Translations under genes and position numbers: made by a program
The notes under the pieces: generated by a model
The model's input: only the letters and a program-made list of their open reading frames with translations
Told to the model about the DNA's origin: nothing
The model's database searches: none
Assembly: GCA_963842525.1 (NCBI GenBank)
Contig: CAWJGT010000003.1
Location: 1,824,001-1,888,000 of the forward strand
Length of the DNA: 64,000 nt
Direction of reading: 5' to 3'
Source of the DNA: an uncultured Holophagales bacterium
Lineage (GTDB): Bacteria > Acidobacteriota > Thermoanaerobaculia > Multivoradales > UBA5704
Part shown: positions 2,315 through 32,870 of the stretch, piece by piece
Numbering within the stretch: the stretch's first letter is position 1
Layout of the letters: each line of letters begins with the position of its first letter

Positions 2315-2341
2315 TGAGGGGGTCTCTCCTTCTCCCTCGTT
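2315..2341 (+). promoter_or_regulatory. ECF-type promoter motif A (TGAGGG-N17-CGTT), upstream of eCIS-1 sheath
   Basis: TGAGGG 2315-2320, CGTT 2338-2341; same spacing at five other upstream sites. Confidence 0.65.
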
Positions 2342-2453
2342 GTGTGGACGAGTAGATGAAGCGGCTCCTGGGGCGACCCGGAGCGGCGAGGCACCAACGA
2401 GAACTGTGCGCCCTGTCGGCCGGAAGGCGAGGGTCGCCAAGGAGAGAGCTCTT

Positions 2454-4367
2454 ATGCCAACGTACCTTCGGCCCGGGGTGTACGTCGAGGAGATCCCGAG
2501 CGGCTCGAAGCCGATCGGGGGAGTCGGCACTTCCACCGCCGCCTTCCTCGGATTCACCACCCGGGGGACGACCGATGATCCCACCCTGATCTTCAAGTGG
2601 GACGACTACCAGCGCCTGTACGGCGGGATTCGCGACACCGGGACCTCCGCCCAGGGCGACCCGATGGGCCATAGCGTCTTCGCCTTTTTCCAGAACGGCG
2701 GCACCGCCGCCTATATCGTGCGCCTGGCCGAGGGCGGCATCCGCTCCCGCGGCGCGATCCTGCACCCCGCTGCGGACACCACACTCTCGCCGGATGACCA
2801 ACTCGTCACCTGGACGGCTGCCAACGAGGGTGCCTGGGGCAACGATGTGCGGGTGCTGTTCAACCCCAAAACCGTGGGTGGTAAAACCACCTACGTCGCG
2901 CAGATCGGCACCGGCTCGGGCGACGATTTCCAGACACTCGAGACCTTCGGCGGGATGTCCCTCACCCAGGGCGACCCCCACTACATCGAGGGCAGGATCA
3001 ACGGCGTCTCCTCGCTGGTCACGGCGAAGGTCGAGCCCGCCTCGACCCACATGCAGGGCGTCAGCATCGGCCGGGATATGGCCAGCGTCGTCCTCAACAC
3101 CCTCAACGGCCAGTCGATGTCGGTGACAGTGGACGGCACCGCTCGCAACATCAGCTTCACCGCCAGCGAAATCGGCGACGGTGCCAAGCTCGCCGATGTG
3201 GCGGCCAAGATCCAGGAGAAGGTGCGCGAAGGCGAGAACGCTCCTGCCGTCGAGAATTTCACGGCCACGGCAGCCAACAACCGGATCGTACTGACCTCGG
3301 GCTCGCGCACCGCCACCTCCTCGGTCGTGGTCGCTCCAGCCGGCACGGCGGCGGTGATCCTCGGCCTGGGCACCGGCAACCAGGGGACGGAGCGGACGGG
3401 CGACCAGAGCCTGCGCCGTGTGCTCCCCGGGTCCAACCCCCGTGTGGAGGCCGCGCTGGCCAACGGCGGCGACGGCAGCACGGCGGGCAGCAACGCCTAC
3501 CAGGCCGCCTTCGCCAAGCTGGAGAAGATCCGCGACATCAGCATCCTCTCCCTGCCCGGCCGCGCCTATGACAACGCGGGCAAGGCGCTCGTCGACTCGG
3601 CCATCGCCCACGCGCAGAAGATGCGCAACCGGGTGGTGATCGTCGATCCGCCGCAGGGTGCGCAGCTCGTCACCGAGAACGACGTCAACGGCCTCGGCCT
3701 GCCGACGTCGACCTACTCGGTCCTCTACTACCCCTGGCTCAAGGTCGCCAACCCGTTCTACAGCGCCGAGAAGAATCCGGGCGCGCCGGTGACCGTGCTC
3801 GTGCCGCCGTCCGGCTTCGCTGCCGGCATGTGGTCGCGCATCGACGGCCGCCGCGGCGTCTGGAAGGCGCCGGCCGGCGTCGAGACGGCGCTCCTGGGCG
3901 TCGCGGGCTCCGAGTTCCAGGTCGAGGACGGCGAGCAGGACCAGCTCAACCCGCTGGGCGTCAACTGCATCCGCAAGCTGCCCAACTTCGGGCCGGTCAT
4001 CTGGGGCACCCGCACGCTGTCGACCAACGCCGACCCGGAGTGGCGCTACGTGCCGGTCCGCCGCACGGCCATCTTCATCGAGCAGAGCGTCTACAACGGC
4101 ATCCAGTGGGCCGTGTTCGAGCCCAACAATCACCAGCTCTGGTCGTCGCTGCGGGTCAACATCGATTCGTTCATGAACGGCCTGTTCCGCGCCGGAGCGT
4201 TCCAGGGCGAGAAGGCGTCCGACGCCTACTTCGTCCGCTGCGGCCTCGGCGACACCATGACCCAGGGCGACATCGACCGTGGCCAGGTCATCGTGGTGGT
4301 GGGCTTCGCGCCGCTCAAGCCGGCCGAGTTCGTCATCGTCCGCATCCAGCAGAAGGTCGGACAGTAA
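2454..4367 (+). CDS. eCIS-1 contractile tail sheath protein
   Basis: MPTYLRPGVYVEE start, FFQNGG, VWKAPAG, LNPLGVNCIR, WRYVPVRR, VFEPN, APLKPAEFV sheath motifs; ATG at 2454 after AAGGAGAG. Confidence 0.96.
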   Translation: MPTYLRPGVYVEEIPSGSKPIGGVGTSTAAFLGFTTRGTTDDPTLIFKWDDYQRLYGGIRDTGTSAQGDPMGHSVFAFFQNGGTAAYIVRLAEGGIRSRGAILHPAADTTLSPDDQLVTWTAANEGAWGNDVRVLFNPKTVGGKTTYVAQIGTGSGDDFQTLETFGGMSLTQGDPHYIEGRINGVSSLVTAKVEPASTHMQGVSIGRDMASVVLNTLNGQSMSVTVDGTARNISFTASEIGDGAKLADVAAKIQEKVREGENAPAVENFTATAANNRIVLTSGSRTATSSVVVAPAGTAAVILGLGTGNQGTERTGDQSLRRVLPGSNPRVEAALANGGDGSTAGSNAYQAAFAKLEKIRDISILSLPGRAYDNAGKALVDSAIAHAQKMRNRVVIVDPPQGAQLVTENDVNGLGLPTSTYSVLYYPWLKVANPFYSAEKNPGAPVTVLVPPSGFAAGMWSRIDGRRGVWKAPAGVETALLGVAGSEFQVEDGEQDQLNPLGVNCIRKLPNFGPVIWGTRTLSTNADPEWRYVPVRRTAIFIEQSVYNGIQWAVFEPNNHQLWSSLRVNIDSFMNGLFRAGAFQGEKASDAYFVRCGLGDTMTQGDIDRGQVIVVVGFAPLKPAEFVIVRIQQKVGQ

Positions 4368-4388
4368 AGGTATAGGGAGATACGAGAC

Positions 4389-4899
4389 ATGGCTGCTCCA
4401 CTGTTCACTGTCAATGCGCACCGTTCCGACCCATATCGGACGTTCAAGTTTCAGGTCATCATCGACGGCAAGGTCGTCGCCGGCCTGCGCAAGATGGGCG
4501 CCCTCAAGAAGAAGACCGAACCGGTCAAGTGGCGCTCTTCCAACGACCCGTCGCACGAGCGGATCATGCCCGGCGGCACCAGCTATGAGCCGGTGACGCT
4601 GGAGCAGGGTCTGACGCACGACCCGGTGTTCGAGGCCTGGGCAAACCTGGTCAACAACATCGAGGGCGACGGTGCGGTCTCGCTCAAGAACTACCGCAAG
4701 GACATCGTCATCAACGTCCTGAACCTCCAGGGCCAGGTGGCGATCTCGTACAAGCTGTTCCGGGCGTGGATCTCGGACTACCAGGCGCTGCCCGATCTGG
4801 ACGCCGGCAACATGAACACGGTCGGCATTCAGAGCGATCACCCTGCAGCACGAGGGCTGGCAGCGCGACGGCAGCGTGGCGGAGCCGACGGAGAGCTAG
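4389..4899 (+). CDS. eCIS-1 tail tube protein (T4 gp19/Afp1-like), one frameshift near 4835
   Basis: DPYRTFKFQV...PGGTSYEPVTLEQGLT...YRKDIVI; the expected end ITLQHEGWQRD...TES* is in a shifted frame. Confidence 0.9.
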
Positions 4900-4902
4900 T
4901 CG

Positions 4903-5696
4903 ATGCTGCCCGGCGGACTCTGGCATCAGGGGGAGCGGCTCCGCGACTGGTCCTTCGCGCCTCTCACAGGCGCGGTGGAGCTGGCGATCGCGGAGGCCGC
5001 TCGCGGGGTGGGGAGCCTCCCCCAGCGGGTCACGGCGGTGCTGTCCGCCGCGCTGGGGGAGCTTGGAGGGGAGGTGGTGAGCCCCGAGGCGGTGCGCTCC
5101 CTCTGCGTCGCCGACCGGCAGTTCCTCATGCGGCAGCTCGCCGTCGTGCTCGGGGTGGGGGACGACTGGATGGCTGCATCGTGCAAGCGGTGCGGGAGCG
5201 CGTTCGAACGTGCCGATCCGCCATGCGGAGCTGCCGGTCAAGCCGGCGGGGCAGGGCTATCCGTTCGCGGAGGCCGAGACGAGCCTCGGTCCCTTGCGGC
5301 TGCGGGTCGCCACCGGCGCCGATCAGGAAGCGGTCGTGCGGATCGAGGACCCGGCGGAGGCCCGGCGCAAGCTCGCCCGGCGCTGCCTGGTCGAGCCGTC
5401 CGCCGGCAACCTTTCGGACGAAGATTTGGACCGGATCGACGCGGCGCTCGAGGAGGTCTCGCCGGAGCTCGTCGACACAGGCGCAGGTGGCCTGCGTCGA
5501 CTGCGGCAGCCCGAGCGAGCTGTTCCTCGATCCCTACGTCTGCCTCTCGCGGGCCAGCACGGAGATCTACTCGGATATCCACGTGCTCGCCTCCGTCTAC
5601 CACTGGAGCGAGCGGGAGATCCTGGGCCTGCCACGCGAGAGGCGCCAACTGTACATGGCCCTGGTCGACAGGGCGCGAGGAATAACGGCGGACTGA
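4903..5696 (+). CDS. eCIS-1 baseplate/tail-assembly protein with two CxxC motifs and DUF6760-like C-terminus; frameshifts near 5208 and 5475
   Basis: Spliced from three frames: LCVADRQFL..CKRC / VPIRHAELP..LRVATGADQ / CVDC..IHVLASVYHWSEREILGLPRERR. Confidence 0.7.
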
Positions 5697-5723
5697 GGTC
5701 CGCTGCAACAAGGAGACGAAGCC

Positions 5724-7338
5724 GTGGGTTACCTGGCCGATGTAGTCGCCGACAGCCGCTCGCGGGGGACTCATGCCCCCATGCCGGAGGCTGCCGTGCC
5801 GGGGCTGGAGCCCGCGGAAGGAGAGGTCCTGGCGCCGGAGGAGATCACCGATCCCTTCCTGGACGCCGGGCCTCTCGTCAACGATCGGGCTGGGGCCGGG
5901 GTGGTGGGCTCATGGCCGCTGGAAGACCCGGCGGCCGCCGTCCGTAAGGAGGCAACCCCTTCTCCTCTGCGGGAAGACCGGAGAGTGGCTACGGGGGAGG
6001 CGAAATCCGAAAGGTGGAAGGGTCGTGAGGTCGGCGCTTCGGTGTCACCTCTTTTATCGGCTCCAACTGCTCGTAGGCAAGTACCCGAGCTCGCAAGTGA
6101 AGTCGCAGGACTCGTGGAGAGACCACAGGAGACCGCCACCCCGCCCCATCCGAATTTTGAACCTCACCCCCTGTCCCCCTCTCCCATCGCCCCCCCTGCC
6201 GCCGGGAGAGGGGGGACGCAGGCGGAGGCTTTGCGGGACAGGGAGCTCATTCGCTGATTCCAGGGACGTTGCCCCGACGCGCCCTCACCCCGGGTTGACA
6301 CCCGGGGCTACCCAGTTCCGCCCTCCGGGCTCCGGAATGCCCGGCTCTGGCGAGCCCGGAGGGCGCCATTCGGTAGCCCCGGGTGTCAACCCGGGGCGAG
6401 GGTCCCATGATCCCTTGGCCGCTGACCATGTGACCGATCTCGACGCAGGGGTGGGGCGCGGGCAGAGTCCTCACCCCCTGTCCCCCTCTCCCATCTCCCT
6501 TCCATCCCCCGCCGGGAGAGGGGGGACGCAGGCGGAGCGGCTGGGAGATACCACTCACTCTCTTGGAGCTGGGGCTGACAGAGGAGACGGAGGCCGGCGC
6601 GCTGAAGATCTACGAGGGGGTGGGCAGGGGGAAAAGCCCCAACGGGGCGCCGGCATAAAGCCTGGGGTTTCAACCCCAGGACAGCGGTCCGATTCCATCC
6701 CAAGCCCCGAAGGGGCGACGGCAGGGCAGCGGGGTTCTAACCCCGCGGGCGCGGCCCCGCCCGGGCATGAAGTGCCCGGGCTAGGAACGGCGCCGGGTGA
6801 ACCCGGCTTGAAGCCCCATTCATGGGGCGCTGTTGCTAGCCCGGCGACTTCATCGCCGGGCGGGATTGGCTCCCGAGAGCTCCCGGAGGACCCTCTCCCC
6901 CTGGCCCCCTCTCCCGTGCGTCCCCCGGCCCTCCACCCCGAACGGGAGAGGGGGAACGCTGTGGTGGCTGGTGGGGATGAGCCGACCGCAAGCGGCAAGG
7001 CCGTTTTCGCAGAGCCCGTCCCGCCGCGGCAGGACGGGGGGGTGGGAGCCTGGGACCGCGGGCGTCTCGCCCGCCCAGAGCCGAGCCGACAGCTTCAGCA
7101 CCGATCAGCGCCACCGCTGCCGCCCACCCAGGCCCTGTCCCTTCCTTCCTTGCCTCCTCTCGCCCGCCGGGCGGAGCGAGGCCAGGGAAGGGAGTCCCAG
7201 GCACCGCGCGTCAGCATCGGGACCCTCGAAGTCGTCATCACCGTGCCCGAGCCCACCGTTCCCCAGGAGGCTCCGGCCGCGCCACCTCCGAGCGCCGGCG
7301 AGTCGTTCGCCAGCCGTTTCTATCTGAGATCTCTGTAA
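5724..7338 (+). CDS. eCIS-1 low-complexity protein filled with in-frame REP-like palindromes; frameshift near 6240
   Basis: GTG start with AAGGAG RBS (MGYLADVV); C-terminus RVSIGTLEVVI...FASRFYLRSL typical of the eCIS gene preceding Pvc16; Pro/Gly-rich middle. Confidence 0.6.
5957..7192. repeat. Cluster of several different REP-like hairpin families inside a CDS
   Basis: CCTCACCCCCTGTCCCCCTCTCCC..GGGAGAGGGGG at ~6162 and ~6469 (variant ~6889); CCCCGGGTTGACACCCGGGGCTAC inverted pair ~6287-6396; CCTGGGGTTTCAACCCCAGG ~6661; GCCCCGAAGGGGC ~6704; further hairpins ~6760-6862, ~7044, ~7138. Confidence 0.85.
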
Positions 7339-7359
7339 GCGCCCCGGGAGTTTTCGCTC

Positions 7360-7920
7360 ATGCCGCTTCCTCTCTCGTCCCTGTCGCGCGTGTGCCGGTA
7401 CGTGGCCGACTTCGTCGGCTCCGAGCTGGAGGCGAGCACGCACTCGGTCCGCGTGCTGATCGGCTCTCCGGCCGAGGCGGCCAAGGATGCCGAGACCGAG
7501 CACCGTATCAATCTGTTTTTCTATCTGATCGAACCGTCCGGCTTCGGCTTTGGCATGGCCCCGGGCGAGACCTGGCTGCTGCGCCTGCACTGCCTGATCA
7601 CGGCCTTTGGCGCCGCAGAAAGCCCGGTCAGCTCGGGGGAGAACGACCTGCGGCTGCTCGGCGAGGTCCTGCGCGCCTTCCACGAAAATCCGGTCCTTCC
7701 GCCGCTCGACATCGATGGCTCTACCGTGCGGATGCAGGCGGTTTTCGAGCCCCTCACCCTCGACCAAATCAATCACATCTGGTCGACCCAGGGGGACGTC
7801 ACCTACCGTCCGTCGGTCGGCTATGAGATGACCCTGCTGCCGGTCATACCGAAGACGCCGGCGGTGGCGAGCCCGCTCGTCGCCGCGATCGACGTCAGCG
7901 TCCATGCGGAGGAGCCATGA
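7360..7920 (+). CDS. Pvc16/Afp16-family (DUF4255) tail terminator/cap protein
   Basis: INLFFYLIEP, LHCLITAF, LLGEVLRAFHENPVL, IWSTQG..YRPSVGYE. Confidence 0.88.
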   Translation: MPLPLSSLSRVCRYVADFVGSELEASTHSVRVLIGSPAEAAKDAETEHRINLFFYLIEPSGFGFGMAPGETWLLRLHCLITAFGAAESPVSSGENDLRLLGEVLRAFHENPVLPPLDIDGSTVRMQAVFEPLTLDQINHIWSTQGDVTYRPSVGYEMTLLPVIPKTPAVASPLVAAIDVSVHAEEP

Positions 7921-9260
7921 GCGCCTGGGCACTGGGCGTCGAGCCGGAGAACGCCATCCTCGCGCGGCCGGAGCTGCTGCGCGCCGAGTGGGAGCGCATC
8001 GAGCTGCTCGGCCACTGCCTCGACCAGTCGCGGCGCGGTCAGGAGGTCGGGAAAGAGGTCATCTCGCGCCTCCAGGGCCTCCAGTCGGAGGTGCAGCAGT
8101 CGCGGCCGGATGCCTGGCGGATCGTCGATGCGCCCGACCTCGCGCCGCATGAGTACGACCTGCTGGCCTGCGCGGTGGCTCCCGAGGCCGAGCCCCGGCT
8201 CGGATGGCTCTTCCAGAGCCTCCAGCCCGGCGCACCGCAGCCCTATCCGACCCCTGCCTTCGTCCACGACCTGCTGGCCATGGACTCCCTGGAGGCGAAT
8301 ACGCTCTATGAAGCGCTCGCCGACGGCGGCAGGCTGCGCCAGCGCAACCTGATCCGCGTGGACGGGGAGGACCCCTACCAGCCGATCCGGCCCGGTCCGG
8401 GGATTGCCGCCCGCCTGCTTGGCCGTCAGGGAGGCGATGCGGCCCCGCCCGGCGCCGTCAAGGTCACCGCGCGGCCGGCCTGGGACGACCTCGTGCTGCC
8501 GCAGTCCCACCTCGCCATGCTGCGCGAGCTGCTGCTCTGGGTGCAGCACCGGCGCATCGTTGTCGAAGAGTGGGGTGGCGGCGAGGTCGGCGGACCGATC
8601 GCGCTCTTCGCCGGCCCGTCGGGCACCGGCAAGACCTTCGCTTCGGCGGTGCTCGCCGCCGAGCTCGGCTGGCCGCTCTATCGGGTCGACCTCGGCCAGC
8701 TCGTCAGCAAGTACATCGGCGAGACCGAAAAGAACCTGAACCGCCTCTTCGACGCCGCACACGGCCGGCCCATGGTCCTGCAGTTCGACGAGGCGGACAG
8801 CCTCTTCGGCAAGCGCGGCGAGATCAAGGAGGCGCGCGACCGCTACGCCAACCTGGAGGTCAACCACCTGCTGGCGCGCATCGAATCGCACCGCGGCCCC
8901 TGCATCCTGACCTCCAACCTGCGTCGCAACATGGACCAGGCCTTCGCGCGGCGCTTCCAGGTCGTGGTCGACTTCCCGCGCCCGGACGCCGAGTCGCGCT
9001 CACGCCTCTGGGCCCGCCTGCTGCCTCCGCGCGCCCCCCGCGCGGCGGACGTCGATCCCGAGTTTCTTGGCCTGGCGGCCAACCTGACCGGCGGCGGCAT
9101 CCGCAACGCCGCCCTCCACGCCGCCTACCTGGCAGCCGGGGCGGGCACGCCGATCACCCTGGCGCACGTGACCCTGGCGGTCTGGCGCGAGCTGGGCAAG
9201 GACGGCCGCGAGCTGTCGCGTACCGACCTCGGGCCGCTGGCGCCGTACCTGGCGGAATAG
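7917..9260 (+). CDS. eCIS AAA+ ATPase (Afp15/Pvc15-like)
   Basis: WDDLVLP, GPSGTGKT, VDLGQLVSKYIGETEKNL, FDEADSLFGKR, DRYANLEV. Confidence 0.95.
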   Translation: MSAWALGVEPENAILARPELLRAEWERIELLGHCLDQSRRGQEVGKEVISRLQGLQSEVQQSRPDAWRIVDAPDLAPHEYDLLACAVAPEAEPRLGWLFQSLQPGAPQPYPTPAFVHDLLAMDSLEANTLYEALADGGRLRQRNLIRVDGEDPYQPIRPGPGIAARLLGRQGGDAAPPGAVKVTARPAWDDLVLPQSHLAMLRELLLWVQHRRIVVEEWGGGEVGGPIALFAGPSGTGKTFASAVLAAELGWPLYRVDLGQLVSKYIGETEKNLNRLFDAAHGRPMVLQFDEADSLFGKRGEIKEARDRYANLEVNHLLARIESHRGPCILTSNLRRNMDQAFARRFQVVVDFPRPDAESRSRLWARLLPPRAPRAADVDPEFLGLAANLTGGGIRNAALHAAYLAAGAGTPITLAHVTLAVWRELGKDGRELSRTDLGPLAPYLAE

Positions 9261-9263
9261 GCC

Positions 9264-9500
9264 ATGTGGTCCATCGAGCGGCTGCGCCTGGAGCTGCCGG
9301 CCGGCTTCGAGCACCGGGCTGGGAGGATCGCGCAGCTCCTGGCGCGGGAGCTGGAGGCGATCGCCGTGCCGGGAGACCTGCGTCTCCAGGAGCTGAAGCT
9401 GCCGCCGCTCGAAATCGACCCTGCCGCGGGCGATGGCGAGATCGCCTGGCAGATCGCCCGCGGCATGGCCCAAAGCATCAGTGACAGAGGCCGCCGGTAG
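9264..9500 (+). CDS. Small eCIS-associated hypothetical protein
   Basis: IERLRLELP start, 3 nt after the ATPase stop, high-GC3 codon usage. Confidence 0.7.
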   Translation: MWSIERLRLELPAGFEHRAGRIAQLLARELEAIAVPGDLRLQELKLPPLEIDPAAGDGEIAWQIARGMAQSISDRGRR

Positions 9501-9546
9501 CAAGAGTAGAATGGGAGGAAACCATGACCGCGTGAGGAGGTTTGCG

Positions 9547-10377
9547 ATGAAAGGAACCGCAGTCTTTCCCGCCGTGCTCCTTCTGGCCCTGACGGCCCAC
9601 CCTTCCCAGGCGTCCGTTGTCGCCAAGCTGACGTTCAACGGTGCCGGAACCGCGGCGCCCGTCGTCGTCCCCCTCAATATAGGCAACGTGCCGCTCGGCA
9701 CGATCGTGGACATCAACCTGGAGCTCTGCTTCAAGCAGCCGGCTTCGCCGCAGGGTTCCTGCGACCAGAGCGGAACGGTGAGCCTGGAAGAGCAACTCGC
9801 CCCACCGTTTTTCTTCGTCGCAGCGTTCCGCGAAGCCCTGGCAACGGGGGCGACGACACCGGTCAGCTTCCCCGTCACCCTCGCGGCAGGGCAGCGCCTG
9901 ATCGTGCTCAGCCACTGGGTTCCCGACCGGATCGGTTCAGTCACCGACTCCCTGGTGCTGCAAGGCTCCTCGGGCGCCGACACCGATATCTTCCGTGTCG
10001 ACCTCACAGGGTCGGGCGTGCCCTCCGGGGCATGTGTGCCGAGCTCTCAGGCGCTTTGTCTCGGCAACGGCCGCTTCAAGGTGCAGTCGGATTTTCTGAG
10101 CTCGACGGACTCGGAGGCGGCGCGGGGGGGCGAACTGACCGACGACACCGGGTATCTCTATTTCTTCAGCCCATCGAACGTCGAGGCAGTGGTCAAGGTG
10201 CTCAACGCCTGCTCGTTCAACAACCGGTTCTGGGTCTTCGCCGGCGGTTTGACCGATGTGCGCACCGTGATCAGCGTCACCGACACGCAACGAAATGTCG
10301 TCAAGACCTATATCAACCCCCAAGGGACGCCATTCCGGCCAATCCAGGACACCGGCGCCTTCGCTACCTGTCCGTGA
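9547..10377 (+). CDS. Secreted protein with Ig-like region and Thermoanaerobaculia-type C-terminal domain
   Basis: Signal peptide MKGTAVFPAVLLLALTAHPSQA; C-terminal LCLGNGRFKV..DDTGYLYFF..NVEAVVKVLNAC..FWVFAGGLTDV..IQDTGAFATCP. Confidence 0.8.
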   Translation: MKGTAVFPAVLLLALTAHPSQASVVAKLTFNGAGTAAPVVVPLNIGNVPLGTIVDINLELCFKQPASPQGSCDQSGTVSLEEQLAPPFFFVAAFREALATGATTPVSFPVTLAAGQRLIVLSHWVPDRIGSVTDSLVLQGSSGADTDIFRVDLTGSGVPSGACVPSSQALCLGNGRFKVQSDFLSSTDSEAARGGELTDDTGYLYFFSPSNVEAVVKVLNACSFNNRFWVFAGGLTDVRTVISVTDTQRNVVKTYINPQGTPFRPIQDTGAFATCP

Positions 10378-10407
10378 GGCCGGCTTCCAAAACGAGCGCC
10401 GGGGGGG

Positions 10408-10434
10408 TGAGGGTCCCCGGCGGCCGTGAGCGTT
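10408..10434 (+). promoter_or_regulatory. ECF-type promoter motif A upstream of tube-initiator gene
   Basis: TGAGGG-N17-CGTT, followed by CCTGTCGGCGGAGAGG which is shared with the 13954 copy. Confidence 0.7.
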
Positions 10435-10464
10435 CCTGTCGGCGGAGAGGAGAACGAAGCCGAC

Positions 10465-11115
10465 ATGATGCTCAACCTGACCAAGGCCGCCTTGATCGAA
10501 TATGCGCTCTCCGTTCCGCCGCTCGCGCTGGTCTTCGACCTCAACCCGGAGAGCCTGACGCGCACGCGCACGGTCACCCTGCGCAACGGCGGGACGAACG
10601 CCACCCGTGGCGGCTATGACTTCAAGCTGCCCACCGAGACCCCCCGCGCTGCGCTGGGGATCGCCGTGCAGCCCGAGATTTTCAGCATCGAGGTCCTGTT
10701 CAACGCCACCGACCGCATGAACGACGGTGATCCGCAGGCTTCGGTCCTGGGCATCCAGCCCGAGCTCGACACCCTGCGCACCATGGTCGAGCCGAAGTCG
10801 CAGGGACCGGGCGGGTTCCAGATGCTCGCCAGCCTGGGCCTGGGCGGTCAGCGCGCGTTCCAGCGCCAACAGTCGGCCTCGGTGCTGCTGTTCGTCTGGG
10901 GCACCCACCTGCTGCCCGTCTTCCTGACCAGCGTGCGGGTGACCGAGAAGGCCCACCTGCCGTCGCTCGTCCCCTACCGCGCCAACGTCGCCCTGCAGAT
11001 GCAGGTCATCGAGGGGAACAACCCCTTCTACACCGTGGAGAAGGTCCGCCAGGTGGCGAGCGCGGCGGTCAACACCGGGCGCGCCGCCGGCGTCATCGTG
11101 GGAGGGCTCTTCTGA
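10465..11115 (+). CDS. CIS tube-initiator protein (Afp7 N-terminal-like)
   Basis: LVFDLNPESLTR, GIQPELDTL, LLFVWG..LPVFLTSVRVTE, PYRANV. Confidence 0.8.
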   Translation: MMLNLTKAALIEYALSVPPLALVFDLNPESLTRTRTVTLRNGGTNATRGGYDFKLPTETPRAALGIAVQPEIFSIEVLFNATDRMNDGDPQASVLGIQPELDTLRTMVEPKSQGPGGFQMLASLGLGGQRAFQRQQSASVLLFVWGTHLLPVFLTSVRVTEKAHLPSLVPYRANVALQMQVIEGNNPFYTVEKVRQVASAAVNTGRAAGVIVGGLF

Positions 11116-11405: not shown

Positions 11406-11408
11406 GCC

Positions 11409-13511: not shown

Positions 13512-13544
13512 CCCGAGCCTCCCTGAAGAGCATAACGCGGTCGC

Positions 13545-21847: not shown

Positions 21848-21874
21848 TGAGGGGGTCCGGGCTCGGGCAGCGTT
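21848..21874 (+). promoter_or_regulatory. ECF-type promoter motif A upstream of first DUF6519 gene
   Basis: TGAGGG-N17-CGTT(CC). Confidence 0.7.
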
Positions 21875-21937
21875 CCATACCGCGGAGTGGACGGCCGCCG
21901 CCGTCGCAGCCGATCGATTGACAAGGGACAGGCCGAC

Positions 21938-24805: not shown

Positions 24806-24829
24806 GGGGACTCGGGACCGACTGGCGTT
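24803..24829 (+). promoter_or_regulatory. ECF-type promoter motif A upstream of second DUF6519 gene
   Basis: TGAGGG-N17-CGTT(CC); the TGA doubles as the upstream stop codon. Confidence 0.7.
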
Positions 24830-24894
24830 CCTACCACGAGCCCGCCGCCGTGGCGGAGCCGCAGCAGACAACCGAGATCAGGATCGAAAACGAG

Positions 24895-27681
24895 ATGAAG
24901 ACACAGATCTCCAGAGATGGATACCGCGCCGACAAGCGCTACTCCGGCGTCTATCAGCAACAGGGCCGGATGATCACCGACCGCGATTGGAACGAGCTGG
25001 TCGATATCCTGAAAGCCCGCCTCGACACGGGGCTGGCCGACGTCGTGGGCAGCGGCGTGCCGCGCGAGCATGCCGTCGCGCTGCGCAAGGGCGCGCAGGG
25101 GCTGGAGATCCGGCCAGGTGTGGTCTACGCCGGCGGCGTGGCCGCGCAGATCGGATCCTCCTACGGACCTTCGACGTTCTTCGGCTACGACCAGCAGGTC
25201 GACTTTCCGTCGCCCCCCCTGCCGCAGGCCAACCAGCCGTACGTCGTCTATGCGGACGTCTGGGAGCGTCCGGTCTCCGCGCTGGAAGACGAAGGGCTGC
25301 GCGATCCGGCCCTGAACGGAGCCGACACGACGACGCGTACCCAGACGATGGCCCAGATCAAGTGGGCCCCCACCGGAAAGAAACCCGAGGACGCGGGCCA
25401 GAACCCGCCGCGCGGCAACGGGACGCTCTCGGTGAGCGTACCGGCGGCGAGCTCGGGCGATCCGCTGGGCGGCACCGACGCGGCCGGCGGGGACTACCTG
25501 TTCCGCCTGGAGGTCCACGACGTGACCTGGCCGTCGAACGCGGCTCCGGACGCGCCGGGCCGCGTGGTCCTCAAGTGGTCCCGCGAGAATGGAGCCGAGC
25601 AGCACAAGGCCCTGGAGGCCCCCAGCTCCTTCCGGTCCGGGCCCTGGATCTACGAGCTGTACCAGCTCGCGAACGAGAAGACCCTCGGATTCCATTACGC
25701 CACCTCCTGGCAACCGGGCCGCGGCGAGCTGTACACCGTGTTCCCTTCCCTGTCCTCCCAGGCGCACCAGAGCCATTTCCTGCGCCGCTGGGACGGCTAC
25801 TGCGTCCTCCAGCTCCAGAGCAACAAGTCCTGGGGTTTCTCCTCCAATCAGGTCGAGGAGCCGAGGCGGACGGCTCCGGGGGCGACGGTCCAGCTCGAGA
25901 GTGGACGACTCATCGTGCGGCTCCTCGACCTCGAGCTCGACCTCGACATCCAAGGCCGGACCTTCCTGGCCGGAGACTACTGGCAGGTGCCGGTCCGCCG
26001 CGCCCTCCACCAGCCCGGAACCCAGATCGTCCAGTCGGCTCCGCCGGCGGGCATTACGCACCGCTATGTGACCCTGGGCTCGGTGAGCGCCACGGGCGAC
26101 GTGACGCCGCGCGCCACCTTTCCGCCCCTGACCGCCCTCCAGGCAGGCGATGTGGGCTACGACGGCAGCGGCTGCACGACCGGTCTCTTCAATGGCTCCC
26201 ACGATACGGTGGAGAAGGCCCTCAACCGTCTCTGGCAGCTCGCCGCCGAGCACGTCGCGTACACCAAGCCCGCGGACAGCTCGCTCTACAAGGGCAAGAC
26301 CATCGCCAATGCCAAGAATGCCCTGGACCTGCTGAGCGACGTCCGCGCGCGGCAGATCCTCTATGACGGAAGGACGGGCGTGCCGGACGTCCAGGCCGCT
26401 CTCGACACGCTGTACACCCGTCCCAGCGGCGACTCCTGCGGCTATACGGTCGGCACGGGCGGAGAATTCGCCAACATCGACACGGCAATCCAGACGTTGA
26501 TGACCCAGCAGAGGCAGGATATCCGCCTGATGCTGCTGCCGGGCGACCACGTGCTGAGCGCGAAGCTCCGTCTTCCTCAGCGACCGCAACGTCCACCTGA
26601 CCTTCACCGGCACCGGCTGGGCATCCCGCCTGATCATCAACAAGGCATTCTCGATTCAGACGCCCGCCTCCGTGACCTTCCAGGGCCTGCACATCGAATT
26701 CCAGGGAACGGGCTCTCTCGTGAGCCAGGGCGGCGAGGTCAGCTTCCTGGACAACCGCATCACCGGCGTCTCCACGGCTGCCCTGATCCGGCCCCAGATC
26801 TGCTCGCGCATCCTGTTGCGCGACAACCTGGTCGAGGTCTCGGAGATCGACCCGACGCTCGAGCCGGTCTCGATCCTCGCGCCGCTCGACACCGAGGCCG
26901 CGATCCAGCAGTTGTTCTCGACGCGCTCGCCGCGGCTTTTCGCGCTGCGCGCCAATGCGATCGACGACAGGATCGCTGCGCTCACCGAGGCCGAGCGCCT
27001 GCAGCGGTCGGACGCCATCCAGATGCAGTTGAACAAGTTTCCCGACCTGCCGAAGGCCGCGTACAACACCTTCCTGATGAACCTCCGGGCCGGAGCCCGG
27101 GGCTTCCTCAACAACACCCTCTCCGCGGTCCGCGTCGAGGCCTTGCAGCGGGCGCGCCCCGGCCTCTTTCTCCAGCTCGACTCTCCCCTGTCGCCGCTGC
27201 GGCTGGAGAGCAATCAGATTTTCGGCTACGTGAGCCTCTACGGCGCTCCGGGAGGAGACCTCACCTACACCGAGCTGCGCAACTTCAGCAGTCAGGTGGG
27301 GAACACACTCTTCGATTCACAGGCTCGACACGACCTGATCGCCACCGGCAACCGGATGAGCGGATTCCGCGTCACTGCACACACCTTCAGCTCGATCCGC
27401 ACGGGCACCCACATCACCCCGCTTTTCCAGCGCATCACGCTGACGGACAACACCTTCGAGGCCGGAGGCAACCAGCTCGTCGCGTGCAACGTCGAGCTCA
27501 GCTCGAACCTGTACACAGCGCCGACCTTCGGCTGGGCCATCGGGGAGGAGGTCCTGCTGATGAGCAACGTGGCGCGCATCGATGTCGGCCTCGACGTGGT
27601 CACCCGGAACATGGTGTCGACCGGCAACTCGACGCGCATGAAGATCCGGCGGATCACGCCGAGCTCCCCGCCACGCCATGA
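24895..27681 (+). CDS. DUF6519-domain tail-fibre-like protein 2 (frameshifts near 26570 and 27655)
   Basis: Paralogue of 21938..24805 along its length; the C-terminal half is in ORF 26672..27799; end AELPATP* parallels SELAPTVP*. Confidence 0.82.
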   Translation: MKTQISRDGYRADKRYSGVYQQQGRMITDRDWNELVDILKARLDTGLADVVGSGVPREHAVALRKGAQGLEIRPGVVYAGGVAAQIGSSYGPSTFFGYDQQVDFPSPPLPQANQPYVVYADVWERPVSALEDEGLRDPALNGADTTTRTQTMAQIKWAPTGKKPEDAGQNPPRGNGTLSVSVPAASSGDPLGGTDAAGGDYLFRLEVHDVTWPSNAAPDAPGRVVLKWSRENGAEQHKALEAPSSFRSGPWIYELYQLANEKTLGFHYATSWQPGRGELYTVFPSLSSQAHQSHFLRRWDGYCVLQLQSNKSWGFSSNQVEEPRRTAPGATVQLESGRLIVRLLDLELDLDIQGRTFLAGDYWQVPVRRALHQPGTQIVQSAPPAGITHRYVTLGSVSATGDVTPRATFPPLTALQAGDVGYDGSGCTTGLFNGSHDTVEKALNRLWQLAAEHVAYTKPADSSLYKGKTIANAKNALDLLSDVRARQILYDGRTGVPDVQAALDTLYTRPSGDSCGYTVGTGGEFANIDTAIQTLMTQQRQDIRLMLLPGDHVLSAKLRLPQRPQRPPDLHRHRLGIPPDHQQGILDSDARLRDLPGPAHRIPGNGLSREPGRRGQLPGQPHHRRLHGCPDPAPDLLAHPVARQPGRGLGDRPDARAGLDPRAARHRGRDPAVVLDALAAAFRAARQCDRRQDRCAHRGRAPAAVGRHPDAVEQVSRPAEGRVQHLPDEPPGRSPGLPQQHPLRGPRRGLAAGAPRPLSPARLSPVAAAAGEQSDFRLREPLRRSGRRPHLHRAAQLQQSGGEHTLRFTGSTRPDRHRQPDERIPRHCTHLQLDPHGHPHHPAFPAHHADGQHLRGRRQPARRVQRRAQLEPVHSADLRLGHRGGGPADEQRGAHRCRPRRGHPEHGVDRQLDAHEDPADHAELPATP

Positions 27682-30600
27682 GCAGCGGACCGGCCGTCGC
27701 CCACAAGGCCGCGGAGGCCGGGAGGCAGCGCACGCCGTCTCCCGTCCCGGCCGGCCCCTCGCCGCAGCGGGAGGAGATCCGCAGTGCCCTCTCGCGTGAC
27801 GAGGAGTACCGCCTCGCGCGCACCGAGGACGGCGGCATCGTCCTGTACTTCCATCCGCGGGACTACTTCACCTGGTCCGATCCCCTCGGCGAGACCTTCG
27901 GCCGCTACGTGCTCCACGTCTTCCCGGGAGCCACCCGGGAGGACGCCGAGGAGTGCGCGCGCGACAACGGGGTCTTCTGGGTGCAACGGGTCCCCGAGGA
28001 TGCCGCGGGCCGCGGCCTGGTCCCCATCACGATCCAGGGGCCTCTTCACTCCCAGGTCAAGGCCTGGTTCAAGACGCACCGCCCCGGCCTCCTGCCGGTG
28101 GAGCCCGCGCCCGGATTCTTCCGCCTGGCGGACACGCGTCCCGACCGCAGATCGCTGGACGTGATCCGTACCTTCGTGCCGAAGGGGGCGCTCGTCCTCC
28201 AACCCGACGTAGGGACCTTCGTCCAGGGGAGCACCATCAAGGCGGCCGTCGAGTTCGCCGGCGACTCCGCCAACGAGCGCCTCAACCTCTATCCCAGCAT
28301 GGCCGCCTTCGACTGGACGGTCGTCGATGCGAACGGCCAGGAAGTCCTGACCGGCCCCCTCTTCGAGGGGCGCGGCACCCGCATCTACGAATTCGAGCTG
28401 AGCGAAAAGGGCCGCTACGAGGTCCGGGTCACGGTCTCCAGCCGGTGGTTCAGCACCGGCGACTTCACCCCGCCGCCGGTCTCGATCCTGGTGGTCAGCG
28501 AAGCGCAGCGCGAGAAGGAGGTCTTCGACCTGCTCCTCACCGGCCCCGGCGAGGAGGCCCCGTTCGAGCGCGTCGGCAGCGAGCTGCGTCTCAAGCCCGG
28601 CGCCGAGCCTCTCTCGGTGGACCGGGAGGTCGAGAAGGCCGACTTCTGGGTCCGGCTCGTCGACCGGATGCAGGCGAGAGGGCAGATCACGGAAGAGCAG
28701 GCCGAGGAGTTCCGCGAAGTCTGGACGGACCGCAAGGAGATGCTCGAGGAGAAGAGGGAGCTGCTGACCGGCACTACGCCATACATCGCCTACGGGAGCT
28801 TCCTCGATGCCACCACCTCCGCCTATCTGCCTCTCCAGGTCGCCCTGCGCGGCGAGAGGCGGAACGAAGGATCCTCCCTCGGCTTCAGCTTCCGACTGCT
28901 CGACTTCACCCTGGCGCCGTACGACCCGCCGCTCCACTCGGGCGAAGCCGAGGTGGAGGTCGCGTTCGGCGACGAGCAGACGGCGACCCGCCGGGCCGAG
29001 ATCGCGGCCCTCGACGAGCTGGCCGGGCACTGGCAGTCCAACAACAGCTATCCGGACGGCACCGTGCGTCTCGTCGTCCGGCTCTCCGACGGGACCCTCT
29101 ACGAGAGGCCGCCCATCGACACCCGCAGCGCCAAGAAGGACGTGCAGCAGGCCGCGGGCAAGGTGGCCCTGGTCCTCGGCGCCGTGGCGCTCGGCATCTC
29201 CCTGATCAATCCCGTCGGCATCCTTTTCGTCGTCGGCACGGGCGCGGGCGTCCTCGCGGCCGGCGCCGGGCTGACCGATGTCGGCCTGCGGCTGGAGCAG
29301 CGCATCCAGACCCACACGCTGCACGCCGACCGCCAGGTGGCGCTCGACTGTCTGCAGGTGGCCGCCACGATCGCCGGCATCGGCGGCATGGCCCGGGCGG
29401 TGCGCTCCGGCAGGGTGCTGAGCGACGGCCGCCTCCTGGTCGGCATGGCCGGCCTGGACGTGGCGCAGGGGATGGTCCTGACCGCCGACGTGCAGGCGCG
29501 CATCCTGGAGGTCGAGGCCGACTACCACAGCCGCGCCGCGGCGCTCCAGGAGCAGGGGAATGCCGTCGAGGGGGACCTGAAGGCGCTCGCCGTCGAGAGG
29601 GACACCGCCGTCGCGAACATCCTCGGCGAGGCCGCCATCGGCGGCGGCTTCCTCCTGGTCTCGCTGGGCAGGGGAGTCAAGGACATCAGAAACCACGTGC
29701 GGAGGGTGGCGGCGAGCGGCGACCCGCGGCTCATCCGCAACACCCTGGGGACCGACCGCGTCCTCACTCCGGACGAGGTGCGCCAGCTCAACACCGCGCT
29801 CGAAGCGGCCGAGCCGCCGGCGAGGATTGAAGAGCCGCCCACGGCCACCGCGAAAGTGGAAGAGCCGCTGCCCGCGCCGCCGAGGGTCGAAGAGCCGGTG
29901 AAGCCCGAAGCCAGGGTGGAAGAGCCGCCCCCCGCAACGGCGAAGATCGAGGAGCCTGCCAAGCCCGGGCCGAAGGTGGAAGAGCCCGGCACGCCGGAGA
30001 AGCCCAGGCCTCCCAGGCCCGCAAGTCCAGAGCCCGCCGCAACGGTCCGTCCGGTCCCCGAGGTCCGGGGACTGGTGACCCTCCCCGCCAAGCCGGTCCG
30101 GCCCGGCGAGCTGCGCTACGACTACCAGACCTGGCTGCGCTCCGAGGTCGAGCATCCGGTCTCGGAGGCGCGGCGCGCGCGGGCCGCCGAGCTGGCGGAG
30201 CGTCTGGCCGGCTTGGACAAGAGGCAGCGCAACGTCGACAAGGTCACGCGACAGCTCGACGAAGCCGAGATCGAGGCCCGGGAGGCAGCCCTCGAGGAGC
30301 CCAAGACGGGAGAGGCGCCGCCGCCACCTTTCGACGAAAAGGCCCATCAGGCCGCCCGCGAGCGCAACGCGGCGGAGCAGCAGCAGATCCTGGCGGACAC
30401 CGTCCCCCTGATGCACGCCCTGCAGGAGCACGCCAACTCGTCCCTGTCCACGGACATGGGCGGCACCCCGGCCCAGATGCTCGACCTCCAGGGACGCCTC
30501 AATCCACCCGAGATCCGGGGCCTCCACATCGAGCTCGGCCGCGAGCGGTTCGTCAAGCTGCTCGGCGCCGGCCCCGACGTCGTCGGCCGGTTCCTGGACG

Positions 30601-31601
30601 TGCGCCGCCAGACCAACCTCACCCGGACCGGCCGCCTCCGCCTGCTCGAGATCCTCGACCTGCACCGCAGCGGCGCCCTCGACGACGCCCGCCTCTCCCA
30701 GGCGCTCGACGAGTGCCGGGACTTCCTGACCCTTTATCCGAACGGGATCAAGGGGGACTTCCGGCGCATGGCCGCGGCGTTCGATCCGGCCGCCCGCGTC
30801 TCCACGGTCGAGGCGCTCCCCACCTCCGAGCTGTACCTGCGGGCCCAGTCGGGGGACGCGGATGCCGCCCACGAGCTCGAGCTGCGGCGCCAGAGCCTCT
30901 CCACCGAAGAGCTCCAGACCGCCGCCCAGCAGGCCGAACAGGCCGCGCGGCGGGCCCGCAAGGCCAAGCGCAAGGACGAGGCGCGGAGCGCCAAGGGCGA
31001 GCAGGACCGGCTCAGAACCCTGCTGGCCGAGCGCAACGTCCTCTTCACAGGGGTCCGCACCACCGACGGCCCCTTCACCACCCACCCCGAGCTGCGCAGA
31101 GTCTTGGAGAACGACCTCCGCAAAAGCCGGGTCGTGGGCCGGATCGACATCCCGCAGTCCGATGCCGCCGTCGAGGGAGGCACCCTCGGAGCCGCGCGCA
31201 CCGACATCCCGGGCGTCGGCCCCCGCAAGCTCTTCCTCGGCCGCTCGCCCAAGGCGCACGCCGAGGGAGAGGCCTCGACGATCAATCCCAGGTACAAGGC
31301 CCCGGCCGAGACCGCGGCCGCCCACGGGCACGCCGAGCAGACCCTGGTCGGCAACCTCGCGGACGACATCGACCAGCTCATCAAAGCCGGCAAGCTGACC
31401 CAGGCGGACCTCCAGGGGAAGACCGTCTGGATGCTCATCGATCAGGAAGTCTGCAGCTACTGCGGCTCCGGCCTGGACAGCCCCGTCGCTCCCGGCGTGC
31501 TGGCGCAGTTCAGCCAGGACTTCCCGCTGCTCACCATCCAGATCAAGAACCTGCGGACCAGCGACCTCATCATCCTGAGGGGCGGCCGCCGGATCAATTA
31601 G
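27678..31601 (+). CDS. Polymorphic-toxin-like eCIS effector with C-terminal zinc-dependent deaminase domain
   Basis: Ig/PKD-like segment, hydrophobic Gly/Ala-rich helices, EEPP linker repeats, then HGHAEQ...EVCSYC..GVLAQFSQDFPLLTIQI. Confidence 0.85.
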   Translation: MSSGPAVAHKAAEAGRQRTPSPVPAGPSPQREEIRSALSRDEEYRLARTEDGGIVLYFHPRDYFTWSDPLGETFGRYVLHVFPGATREDAEECARDNGVFWVQRVPEDAAGRGLVPITIQGPLHSQVKAWFKTHRPGLLPVEPAPGFFRLADTRPDRRSLDVIRTFVPKGALVLQPDVGTFVQGSTIKAAVEFAGDSANERLNLYPSMAAFDWTVVDANGQEVLTGPLFEGRGTRIYEFELSEKGRYEVRVTVSSRWFSTGDFTPPPVSILVVSEAQREKEVFDLLLTGPGEEAPFERVGSELRLKPGAEPLSVDREVEKADFWVRLVDRMQARGQITEEQAEEFREVWTDRKEMLEEKRELLTGTTPYIAYGSFLDATTSAYLPLQVALRGERRNEGSSLGFSFRLLDFTLAPYDPPLHSGEAEVEVAFGDEQTATRRAEIAALDELAGHWQSNNSYPDGTVRLVVRLSDGTLYERPPIDTRSAKKDVQQAAGKVALVLGAVALGISLINPVGILFVVGTGAGVLAAGAGLTDVGLRLEQRIQTHTLHADRQVALDCLQVAATIAGIGGMARAVRSGRVLSDGRLLVGMAGLDVAQGMVLTADVQARILEVEADYHSRAAALQEQGNAVEGDLKALAVERDTAVANILGEAAIGGGFLLVSLGRGVKDIRNHVRRVAASGDPRLIRNTLGTDRVLTPDEVRQLNTALEAAEPPARIEEPPTATAKVEEPLPAPPRVEEPVKPEARVEEPPPATAKIEEPAKPGPKVEEPGTPEKPRPPRPASPEPAATVRPVPEVRGLVTLPAKPVRPGELRYDYQTWLRSEVEHPVSEARRARAAELAERLAGLDKRQRNVDKVTRQLDEAEIEAREAALEEPKTGEAPPPPFDEKAHQAARERNAAEQQQILADTVPLMHALQEHANSSLSTDMGGTPAQMLDLQGRLNPPEIRGLHIELGRERFVKLLGAGPDVVGRFLDVRRQTNLTRTGRLRLLEILDLHRSGALDDARLSQALDECRDFLTLYPNGIKGDFRRMAAAFDPAARVSTVEALPTSELYLRAQSGDADAAHELELRRQSLSTEELQTAAQQAEQAARRARKAKRKDEARSAKGEQDRLRTLLAERNVLFTGVRTTDGPFTTHPELRRVLENDLRKSRVVGRIDIPQSDAAVEGGTLGAARTDIPGVGPRKLFLGRSPKAHAEGEASTINPRYKAPAETAAAHGHAEQTLVGNLADDIDQLIKAGKLTQADLQGKTVWMLIDQEVCSYCGSGLDSPVAPGVLAQFSQDFPLLTIQIKNLRTSDLIILRGGRRIN
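29805..30000 (+). repeat. In-frame (I/V)EEP linker repeats, ~30-bp period
   Basis: ARIEEPPTATAKVEEPLPAPPRVEEPVKPEARVEEPPPATAKIEEPAKPGPKVEEP. Confidence 0.8.
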
Positions 31602-31613
31602 CAGGAGACGTAC

Positions 31614-32378
31614 ATGCCGTTCATCCAAGACAAGGAACCCGCCGCCGCGGTCTGGCGCCGGTTCCTGGAGAAGTCCGCCACGCCCCTTGGACCCGTCCCC
31701 GACCGGCAGGAGGTCCGCCGCATCCTCGCGCAATCGCCCACGGCCGCGCTGCCGGCTCTCGCCATGGGCGGCCTGCCCGCTGTCGGTGGGCTCGTGCAGG
31801 GTGCCACGAATGAGGATGCCCAGACCGTCTGGAGCAAGATCGCCGACGTCAAGACGAAGGCCGAGCCGGGACAGCCGGAGACGCCGCAGCAGACGCGCGC
31901 CCATCAGGCCATCCAACAGATGCTCTCCATCCCCGAAGGGATCACGCTCGTCCGGCAGCTCGGCCGGCTCTTCGGCAAGCGCGACAAGCCGACCTTGGAA
32001 ATCCACTTCGTCAACAAGCTCAAGAAGGACTTCGAAGGCGCCGGCGGCTACTTCGTTCCCGAGGAGAAGGGGCAGCCCAAGTACCAGATCTACATCAGGA
32101 ACGACACGCCGATGGAAGGCGTCTTCTCGCGGGAATGGCCGCAAGGGGAGGGGCCGAAGATCTCCTCCCTCAGCGTGGACTCCGCGTCCAACATGGCCCG
32201 GACGCTGCACCACGAGCTGCTCCACGTCTGGTACCTCCACACGCAAGACGACGGGGAGTACCCGACCGGGCACGGCGATGTCGGCGAGCGCGAAATCGCG
32301 CAGCTCTTCTGGGACCGCCTCAAGAAGTTCGCCGAGCAGCAGGACGATTTCACCCGTCCTGCCCGCGAGCGCAGGTAG
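31614..32378 (+). CDS. HExxH-motif protein (putative metallopeptidase effector or immunity protein)
   Basis: AGGAG RBS; ARTLHHELLHVWY..PTGHG; directly follows the deaminase toxin. Confidence 0.75.
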   Translation: MPFIQDKEPAAAVWRRFLEKSATPLGPVPDRQEVRRILAQSPTAALPALAMGGLPAVGGLVQGATNEDAQTVWSKIADVKTKAEPGQPETPQQTRAHQAIQQMLSIPEGITLVRQLGRLFGKRDKPTLEIHFVNKLKKDFEGAGGYFVPEEKGQPKYQIYIRNDTPMEGVFSREWPQGEGPKISSLSVDSASNMARTLHHELLHVWYLHTQDDGEYPTGHGDVGEREIAQLFWDRLKKFAEQQDDFTRPARERR

Positions 32379-32543
32379 GTGAACAAACCAACGGATAACC
32401 GAACCATCTGCAGACGCTGTAGAGATGCCCTAGTCCACGACCACCGCCCTTGTGGCCACCACATCCGCCAGGGCGTCTCTCGGCCTCCGCAACCACAAAC
32501 GCCCAGGACCTCGTCACAGTCCGAGTGACGGATAGCGTTTCAT

Positions 32544-32601
32544 GTAGGGGCGGCCCTTATGGCCGCCCTCCGGAGGGGCACCCACAAGGGGCGCCCCTAC
32601 A
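32544..32601. repeat. GTAG-type REP doublet
   Basis: TGTAGGGGCGGCCCTTATGGCCGCCC..GGGCACCCACAAGGGGCGCCCCTACA inverted pair; another TGTAG hairpin at ~32418-32480. Confidence 0.85.
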
Positions 32602-32843
32602 GAGGGACGATCCATCTTTTCCGACGTGACAGGGTACTAGCGGCGAAGAGGCTCGGGCTCGCCGGAATTATCGCACGAGCAAGGGAGCGGCTTCCCGGGG
32701 CCCAGGCCGGACCGCTCCCCGTCAGCGCGTACAACGTTTGACAACTGAAGCACAGACGAAGAGGCGGCCCTATCTGTTTGCCAGGGCGTGGCCGTCCAGG
32801 CCATGCTCTGGTCCTTTTTTAACTGAGCTTCCACCCCCGTGGT

Positions 32844-32870
32844 TGAGGGAAACGCAACACCCTCTCCGTT
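32844..32870 (+). promoter_or_regulatory. ECF-type promoter motif A upstream of the ECF sigma gene
   Basis: TGAGGG-N17-CGTT, ending 47 nt before the ATG at 32918. Confidence 0.62.

Follow-up and report, generated by a model that had tools for sequence, protein, structure and literature searches.

Two sets of putative promoter boxes may connect an ECF sigma/zinc anti-sigma operon with two convergent contractile injection clusters in an uncultured Holophagales bacterium

The present study concerns a 64,000-nt stretch of the genome of an uncultured Holophagales bacterium (GCA_963842525.1, contig CAWJGT010000003.1, positions 1,824,001-1,888,000; hereafter the window, in whose numbering all positions are given), which has a G+C content of 68.5% and contains two convergent clusters of genes for extracellular contractile injection systems (eCISs), eCIS-1 on the plus strand and eCIS-2 on the minus strand. 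Between the clusters lie a strong terminator, a copy of the sequence box TGAGGG-N17-CGTT that we call P7, the gene of an extracytoplasmic function (ECF) sigma factor, hereafter sigma 32918, and an overlapping anti-sigma gene, the stop codon of which is separated by 20 nt from that of the last eCIS-2 gene. The box that precedes the sigma gene also heads units of eCIS-1, and a box of a different kind, recurring at orthologs of the sigma gene in other genomes, heads the units of eCIS-2; from this distribution, sigma 32918 most likely switches on the neighboring eCIS-2 through a box that differs from the one before its own gene. The principal features are as follows.

eCIS-1: 2454..32378, plus strand, recognized by profile matches to the cluster's proteins and bearing at least six apparent frameshifts
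Intrinsic terminator closing eCIS-1: 32780..32820, plus strand, a 14-pair stem followed by a T-run
ECF sigma factor gene: 32918..33550, plus strand, 210 aa, with Sigma70_r2, Sigma70_r4_2, and NCBIfam matches and orthologs at 80 loci
Soluble zinc anti-sigma gene: 33547..33804, plus strand, 85 aa, with a zf-HC2 match and an HxxxCxxC motif, its start overlapping the sigma stop codon
eCIS-2: 33825..53052, minus strand, convergent with eCIS-1 and recognized by profile matches

Both clusters are Afp/PVC-like, each encoding a sheath, tube, Pvc16 cap, AAA ATPase, spike, gp25, and baseplate J / P2-I proteins. In eCIS-1 the genes run in the order sheath, tube, an array of repetitive extragenic palindromic (REP) elements, Pvc16 cap, AAA ATPase, tube initiator, gpD-like hub, and spike, followed by gp25, baseplate proteins, two DUF6519 fibers, a 1307-aa protein, and an HExxH protein (31614-32378). 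The order in eCIS-2 is AAA ATPase, cap, two sheaths, two tubes, a REP array, LysM tube initiator, and gpD, and then spike, PAAR, gp25, baseplate J, P2-I, and a CIS13-like fiber.

The initial annotation, which was made from the letters of the window and their translations, had described the gene pair between the clusters as an ECF sigma factor and a soluble HxxxCxxC anti-sigma factor, and the profile searches bear this out. Sigma 32918 contains Sigma70_r2 (E = 1.3e-17) and Sigma70_r4_2 (E = 2.5e-15) domains and scores 86.3 against the sigma70-ECF model TIGR02937, the cut-off of which is 42.9; with regions 2 and 4 only, a length of ~200 aa, and an adjoining cognate anti-sigma gene, it has the makeup of an ECF (group 4) sigma factor. 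The 85-aa anti-sigma protein has a Cys near residue 10 in addition to the HxxxCxxC motif, no hydrophobic segment was seen on inspection of its sequence, and its match to the RsrA model TIGR03988 is weak (28.4, cut-off 62.5).

Seven copies of TGAGGG-N17-CGTT occur in the window, all of them on the plus strand and listed here with the gap between the end of the box and the start codon that follows.

P1: 2315..2341, plus strand, 112 nt 5' of the sheath ATG at 2454, the sheath having a Pfam match
P2: 10408..10434, plus strand, 30 nt 5' of the tube-initiator ATG at 10465, the tube initiator having a weak CIS_tube match
P3: 13954..13980, plus strand, 52 nt 5' of the spike GTG at 14033, with a Phage_base_V match
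P4: 20863..20889, plus strand, within a P2-I-like baseplate gene (about 19460-21187), 108 codons before its stop; a paralog of P5
P5: 21848..21874, plus strand, 63 nt 5' of the fiber 1 ATG at 21938, with a DUF6519 match
P6: 24803..24829, plus strand, 65 nt 5' of the fiber 2 ATG at 24895; the TGA of the box (24803-24805) is the stop codon of fiber 1
P7: 32844..32870, plus strand, 47 nt 5' of the sigma ATG and 24 nt 3' of the T-run of the terminator

Six of these copies had been reported in the initial annotation, on the plus strand and at an exact 17-nt spacing, and all six were recovered; the seventh, P4, had been missed. The accompanying claims about placement and chance were likewise upheld: apart from P4, which is in coding sequence, the boxes stand on the coding strand 30-112 nt before start codons (~30-115 nt had been given), and the expected number of chance copies, said to be well under one per window, is 0.12, with none of 100 shuffles reaching seven. 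Counting both strands, the window has 33 TGAGGG hexamers; CGTT follows seven of them at N17 and none of them at any other spacing from 12 to 22. The caution that a local REP family inflates the TGAGGG counts was found to be of minor weight, given that only five of the 33 hexamers are preceded by GGGG; two of those five are boxes. When one mismatch and spacings of 16-18 were allowed, nine further matches appeared, dispersed over the window, none of which precedes an eCIS gene. A one-mismatch copy at 12738-12764 (plus strand, N17, CGCT for CGTT) is situated after the hub gene, where a non-eCIS stretch begins, and may be a decayed box.

The surroundings of the boxes bear on their nature. The 30-nt leaders of P2 and P3 are 87% identical, the sequences around P4 and P5 match at 53-59%, and the remaining pairs show only background identity (0.28 +/- 0.09) in the spacer and on either flank. 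Since P2/P3 and P4/P5 are related pairs, the boxes represent about five independent contexts, across which only the 10 core bases and their spacing are conserved, and because core and spacing are kept while spacers and flanks are at background, the pattern fits a selected bipartite protein-binding site rather than copies of a repeat. No flank is shared beyond these two pairs, so the box is not part of a longer REP-type repeat. With a fixed spacing between two parts, a CGT-type -10 half (CGTT is invariant and TGAGGG is present in all seven copies, the spacers being unconserved), placement on the coding strand, and positions at the heads of units, TGAGGG-N17-CGTT looks like an ECF-type promoter. 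An AAC core in the -35 half is usual, though not universal, for ECF promoters; it is absent from all seven copies, which have TGAGGG instead.

Three of the boxes follow interruptions of the cluster. Upstream of P2 is an open reading frame (ORF) with a signal peptide and weak coding statistics (9433-10377), upstream of P3 are ~1.4 kb lacking eCIS homology, and upstream of P5 are ~0.66 kb with a minus-strand Cys-rich ORF and copies of REP and Acido-Lenti-1 elements. It is plausible that these three boxes restart transcription past inserted genes. P7 comes after the strong terminator of eCIS-1, and for this reason the sigma operon is taken to be a transcription unit of its own; because the TGAGGG box is common to both, the sigma gene appears to be wired to eCIS-1.

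The sigma family was then considered across genomes. Relatives of sigma 32918 were compared at 80 orthologous loci (55-68% identity; 1.24 Mb in total, 46 of them reaching 5 kb or more in each direction) from Acidobacteriota, Myxococcota, Planctomycetota, Binatia, and other groups, and a short zinc anti-sigma gene is downstream of the sigma gene in 72 of the 80. Apart from generic AAA matches at two loci, homologs of eCIS-1 or eCIS-2 proteins were found at none of the 80. The TGAGGG box, at up to one mismatch, is present within 450 nt upstream in 0/78 orthologs, and at up to two mismatches there are 10 sites, as against 18 in the antisense control. Over the full extent of the 80 loci the box is not enriched (3 observed, 1.98 +/- 1.35 simulated). 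Given the lack of eCIS neighbors (0/80) and of upstream boxes (0/78), the sigma family is not one dedicated to eCISs, and the box that ancestrally stood before its sigma genes is not the TGAGGG box. The orthologous loci contain four matches to the shorter TGAGGG-N17-CGT, three of them with full CGTT; none stands before a recognizable regulator, and their number is at chance.

Two kinds of upstream signal were found in the family. An extended -10 element, TGnTAnnnT, is found in the 120 nt preceding the match start of 38 of 79 orthologs and in 0/79 antisense controls, frequently close enough to the start codon for a leaderless mRNA. The second is a bipartite box that appears to be the family's own, G(A/T)AAC-N15-16-GCATC, and the family thus seems to rely on one of two promoters, a housekeeping one or the box of its own. 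Loci L022 and L078 of the ortholog set carry upstream of the sigma gene a box with the core found in eCIS-2, and variants are present upstream of sigma in L002, L008, L016, L033, L035, L055, L069, and L076. Within 400 nt upstream of sigma, the family box is found at 8-10 loci, compared with 0.6-1.0 expected from the density of the box in those loci. It recurs just past the anti-sigma gene, ~860-900 nt 3' of the start of the sigma match, and also precedes nearby genes, which to judge from their N-termini (rather than from a family search) encode extra zinc anti-sigma (ZAS) proteins, glutaredoxin, a zinc-type dehydrogenase, and sugar-metabolism enzymes. An enumeration of exact 5-mer plus 4-mer bipartite motifs on the ortholog upstream regions came up empty, the family box being too degenerate for such a count.

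In the window, the exact form TGAAAC(CT)-N15/16-GCATC has four copies, all on the minus strand (0.02 expected), which stand on the coding strand at 5'-untranslated-region (UTR) distance from the AAA, cap, tube-initiator, and fiber starts of eCIS-2. Elsewhere in the window a one-mismatch version has a single match.

Family-type box, TGAAAC-N16-GCATC: 53086..53112, minus strand, before the AAA ATPase ATG at 53052
Family-type box, N15: 48540..48565, minus strand, before the cap ATG at 48491; the TGA of the box (48563-48565) also ends the preceding 873-aa ORF
Family-type box, N15: 43128..43153, minus strand, directly after the REP array and before the LysM tube initiator
Family-type box, N16, with the -10 sequence GCATCGAA: 35201..35227, minus strand, before the ATG of the CIS13-like fiber at about 35165

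The two sets do not mix: the TGAGGG box is missing from eCIS-2, and the family box from eCIS-1. In each cluster there is one box whose initial TGA doubles as the stop codon of the gene upstream (24803-24805 in eCIS-1 and 48563-48565 in eCIS-2). When the pattern derived from eCIS-2, defined from the window alone, was applied to the 80 orthologous loci, 11 matches were obtained, ~13-fold more than the 0.82 +/- 0.87 of Markov simulations (maximum 3). Three orthologs that have the family box in front of their own genes, L022, L033, and L078, match sigma 32918 residue for residue in the segments that we assign to regions 2.4 and 4.2 from the general architecture of sigma factors; we see no sign of an altered specificity in sigma 32918.

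Starting from the boxes, their positions, the distribution of the sigma family, and the motif statistics, all of which are direct observations, we infer a promoter role for both boxes, their readers, and a release signal, and arrange them as follows. A further ECF-type sigma factor, here sigma X, encoded outside the window, would read TGAGGG-N17-CGTT and turn on each unit of eCIS-1 as well as, through P7, the sigma/anti-sigma operon. The 85-aa zinc anti-sigma would hold sigma 32918, a member of what looks like a widespread stress-type family; once released, sigma 32918 would read the TGAAAC...GCATC boxes and switch on eCIS-2. That eCIS-1 and the sigma operon are driven by another ECF-type sigma factor and eCIS-2 by sigma 32918 is a wiring we deem somewhat better than an even prospect. 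As the TGAGGG box heads the sigma operon and the family box heads the eCIS-2 units, it would amount to a two-step cascade from eCIS-1 to eCIS-2. The initial annotation had instead proposed that sigma 32918 switches on eCIS-1 when released by its zinc anti-sigma; of this interpretation, the ECF-promoter-like character of the TGAGGG box and the box shared by the sigma gene and eCIS-1 are retained, and the assignment of sigma 32918 as the reader of that box is not supported.

Several observations count against the wiring that we propose. The window contains no second sigma gene that could read the TGAGGG box. The two box types have a like geometry, TGA...-N15/16-GC[A/G]T[C/T]C, and because of this shared geometry recognition of both by one sigma factor is possible. 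The family box was first recognized by eye in the intergenic regions of eCIS-2 and tested afterwards, and among the orthologs it is upstream of sigma in only 8-10 of 79, compared with 38 of 79 for the housekeeping-type -10. Lastly, with at least six apparent frameshifts in eCIS-1, its promoters may drive a decaying cluster.

A more ambitious version of the same wiring would have the cascade couple the two injection systems: sigma X would fire eCIS-1 and at the same time supply the sigma/zinc-anti-sigma pair, borrowed from a pan-phylum stress regulon, and only a second signal, thiol-related or otherwise cytoplasmic, would release sigma 32918 for eCIS-2. We offer this version tentatively and think it rather less probable than not. 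If it were true, two different injection machines would be launched in order and with two keys.

That sigma 32918 itself reads TGAGGG-N17-CGTT, autoregulates its operon through P7, and fires eCIS-1 upon release by the anti-sigma, perhaps reading the eCIS-2 box as well, is in our view unlikely. The arrangement at the locus would suit it, in that a box directly 5' of a sigma gene is the usual mark of an autoregulated ECF sigma factor, the operon adjoins the end of eCIS-1, the window is devoid of any other sigma gene, and both box types begin with TGA and have a like spacing and a GC-R-T-Y-C -10. The orthologs point the other way: the TGAGGG box is conserved before none of their sigma genes (fewer two-mismatch sites were found there than on the antisense strand), and is unenriched in their loci, no eCIS genes adjoin the orthologs, and autoregulation through an upstream TGAGGG box accordingly finds no counterpart in the family. 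The DNA-reading helices of sigma 32918 are moreover identical to those of orthologs that carry a different box, that different box is found four times in eCIS-2, and the -35 half TGAGGG is without the AAC core.

It is also improbable, in our estimation, that the boxes are not promoters at all and are instead a short dispersed repeat, a duplicated leader module, or a site for a protein other than a sigma factor, kept in a degenerating cluster. The observations that favor such an origin are that all seven TGAGGG boxes are perfect, with nearly no degenerate relatives, that P2/P3 and P4/P5 are paralogous past the core, that P4 is inside a coding region, that the G-run of REP ends precedes P1 and P2, and that eCIS-1 is rich in REP and Acido-Lenti-1 elements and in apparent frameshifts. 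Set against these are the retention of both halves and the exact spacing in most pairs while spacers and flanks are at background, the orientation of all boxes with the genes, six of them at 5'-UTR distance from start codons, and the same architecture in eCIS-2, the box of which is independently tied to the sigma family. An Rfam scan of the window returned no family overlapping any TGAGGG box, and no hairpin common to all seven copies was seen by eye; several of the spacers, judged in the same way, are able to pair with TGAGGG.

Control of eCIS-1 by the sigma-54 activator encoded at 510-2072, which is immediately 5' of P1 and of the first eCIS-1 unit and has a Sigma54_activat domain with an intact GAFTGA and an N-terminal domain without an assigned family, is very improbable and was dropped. 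Matches to a sigma-54-type -24/-12 promoter (at most two mismatches) are below chance (8 found, 19 expected), none of them falls in an intergenic region of eCIS-1 or in 2072-2454 or precedes an eCIS gene, and the TGAGGG box does not have the geometry of the sigma-54 consensus GG-N10-GC.

The sigma/anti-sigma operon invites comparison with SigR-RsrA of Streptomyces coelicolor and related pairs of an ECF sigma factor and a ZAS. As in SigR-RsrA, a small ECF sigma factor is predicted to be co-transcribed with a short soluble anti-sigma that has HxxxCxxC and an N-terminal Cys, and the family has apparently two kinds of promoter before sigma, one housekeeping-type (38/79) and one ECF-type (8-10/79 loci). 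Unlike RsrA, the anti-sigma of the window scores under the RsrA cut-off (28.4 against 62.5), and unlike SigR, sigma 32918 has AlgU/RpoE/SigW-like proteins as its closest solved sigma factors, while its family box, G(A/T)AAC-N15-16-GCATC, is not the SigR box; the proposed targets here also differ in being injection-system operons. Sigma cascades are known from the sporulation sigma factors and from mycobacterial SigH, which drives sigE and sigB. The proposed wiring would share with them the placement of one sigma factor's promoter before the gene of the next, which yields ordered or conditional expression, and would differ in that each of the two tiers would control a separate phage-tail-like machine and that the first sigma factor would be encoded outside the window.

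Our literature search found no paper describing an ECF sigma gene beside an eCIS, or these boxes, the sole precedent being Streptomyces SigE. The ECF sigma factor SigE of S. coelicolor is stated to control two genes of the contractile injection system (CIS), SCO4253 for the sheath and SCO4263 for a regulator of the cluster (PMC10286715). The two cases have in common a stress-responsive ECF sigma factor with CIS genes in its regulon, which in the present case is predicted. In Streptomyces, as that paper describes it, the SigE gene is elsewhere, control is exerted at its own transcription, and the cluster is reached partly via a LuxR-type regulator (PMC10286715), whereas here the sigma operon lies between two clusters, each putative transcription unit has a box, and there are two box types. 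A survey of eCIS loci lists GerE/LuxR-type, BTAD, and RfaH proteins as conserved regulators, and the word 'sigma' is absent from its main text (Geller et al. 2021, PMC8213781). The locus described here resembles those of the survey in that a regulator gene is encoded beside the eCIS, and differs in that the regulator is a sigma factor, GerE/LuxR, BTAD, and RfaH being DNA-binding activators or antiterminators (PMC8213781).

The triggering of eCISs is largely obscure, the regulators named in the available texts being those of the LuxR/GerE, BTAD, and RfaH types plus the Streptomyces ECF sigma factor that reaches part of its cluster. The present locus offers two sharply defined sets of putative promoters, with seven and four exact boxes, and a sigma/anti-sigma family box that can be read from orthologs in several phyla, which makes for a testable circuit with respect to which sigma factor acts on which machine, upon which signal, and with what priming. 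It also provides a general caution that a box before a sigma gene is not necessarily the box of that sigma factor.

The apparent frameshifts of eCIS-1 are at 4830, 5190, 5470, 12029-12367, about 17750, and 26711-26736 (at least six sites) and affect the tube, a Zn-ribbon gene (twice), the gpD-like hub, a baseplate-J-like gene, and fiber 2; none was seen in eCIS-2 or in the housekeeping genes of the window. They may be real decay or local assembly errors. A search with the eCIS-1 sheath against plasmids (tblastn) gave only distant relatives, at no more than 34% identity over the full length, which were unusable for promoter footprinting.

Both clusters are interrupted by REP-like arrays, at 5700-7340, 21.2-21.8 kb, and 43.1-44.1 kb, in which REP families were located, away from the TGAGGG boxes, at 6159-6975, 21525-21574, and 43160-43739, and four matches to the Acido-Lenti-1 RNA (RF01687) lie inside the arrays at 6353-6396 (minus), 6635-6680 (minus), 21705-21750 (plus), and 43629-43672 (plus). 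These RNA matches point to an Acidobacteriota host. Other repeats are a 104-nt tandem duplication (88% identity) at 13623-13830, in the non-eCIS stretch 5' of P3, and five in-frame 30-nt repeats at 29815-29994, within the 1307-aa ORF. A fragment of a MoaF-like gene without a start codon (2028-2330, minus) is found between the sigma-54 activator and P1.

The 3' end of the HExxH gene and the terminator (32210-32385 and 32745-32819) are repeated directly at 53267-53535, beyond the head of eCIS-2, with 91% and 85% identity, the right-hand copy being a 3' fragment only. The two copies flank P7, the sigma and anti-sigma genes, and eCIS-2 and enclose ~20.4 kb, and direct repeats around the sigma operon and eCIS-2 are the pattern that a single-crossover integration or a duplication would leave.

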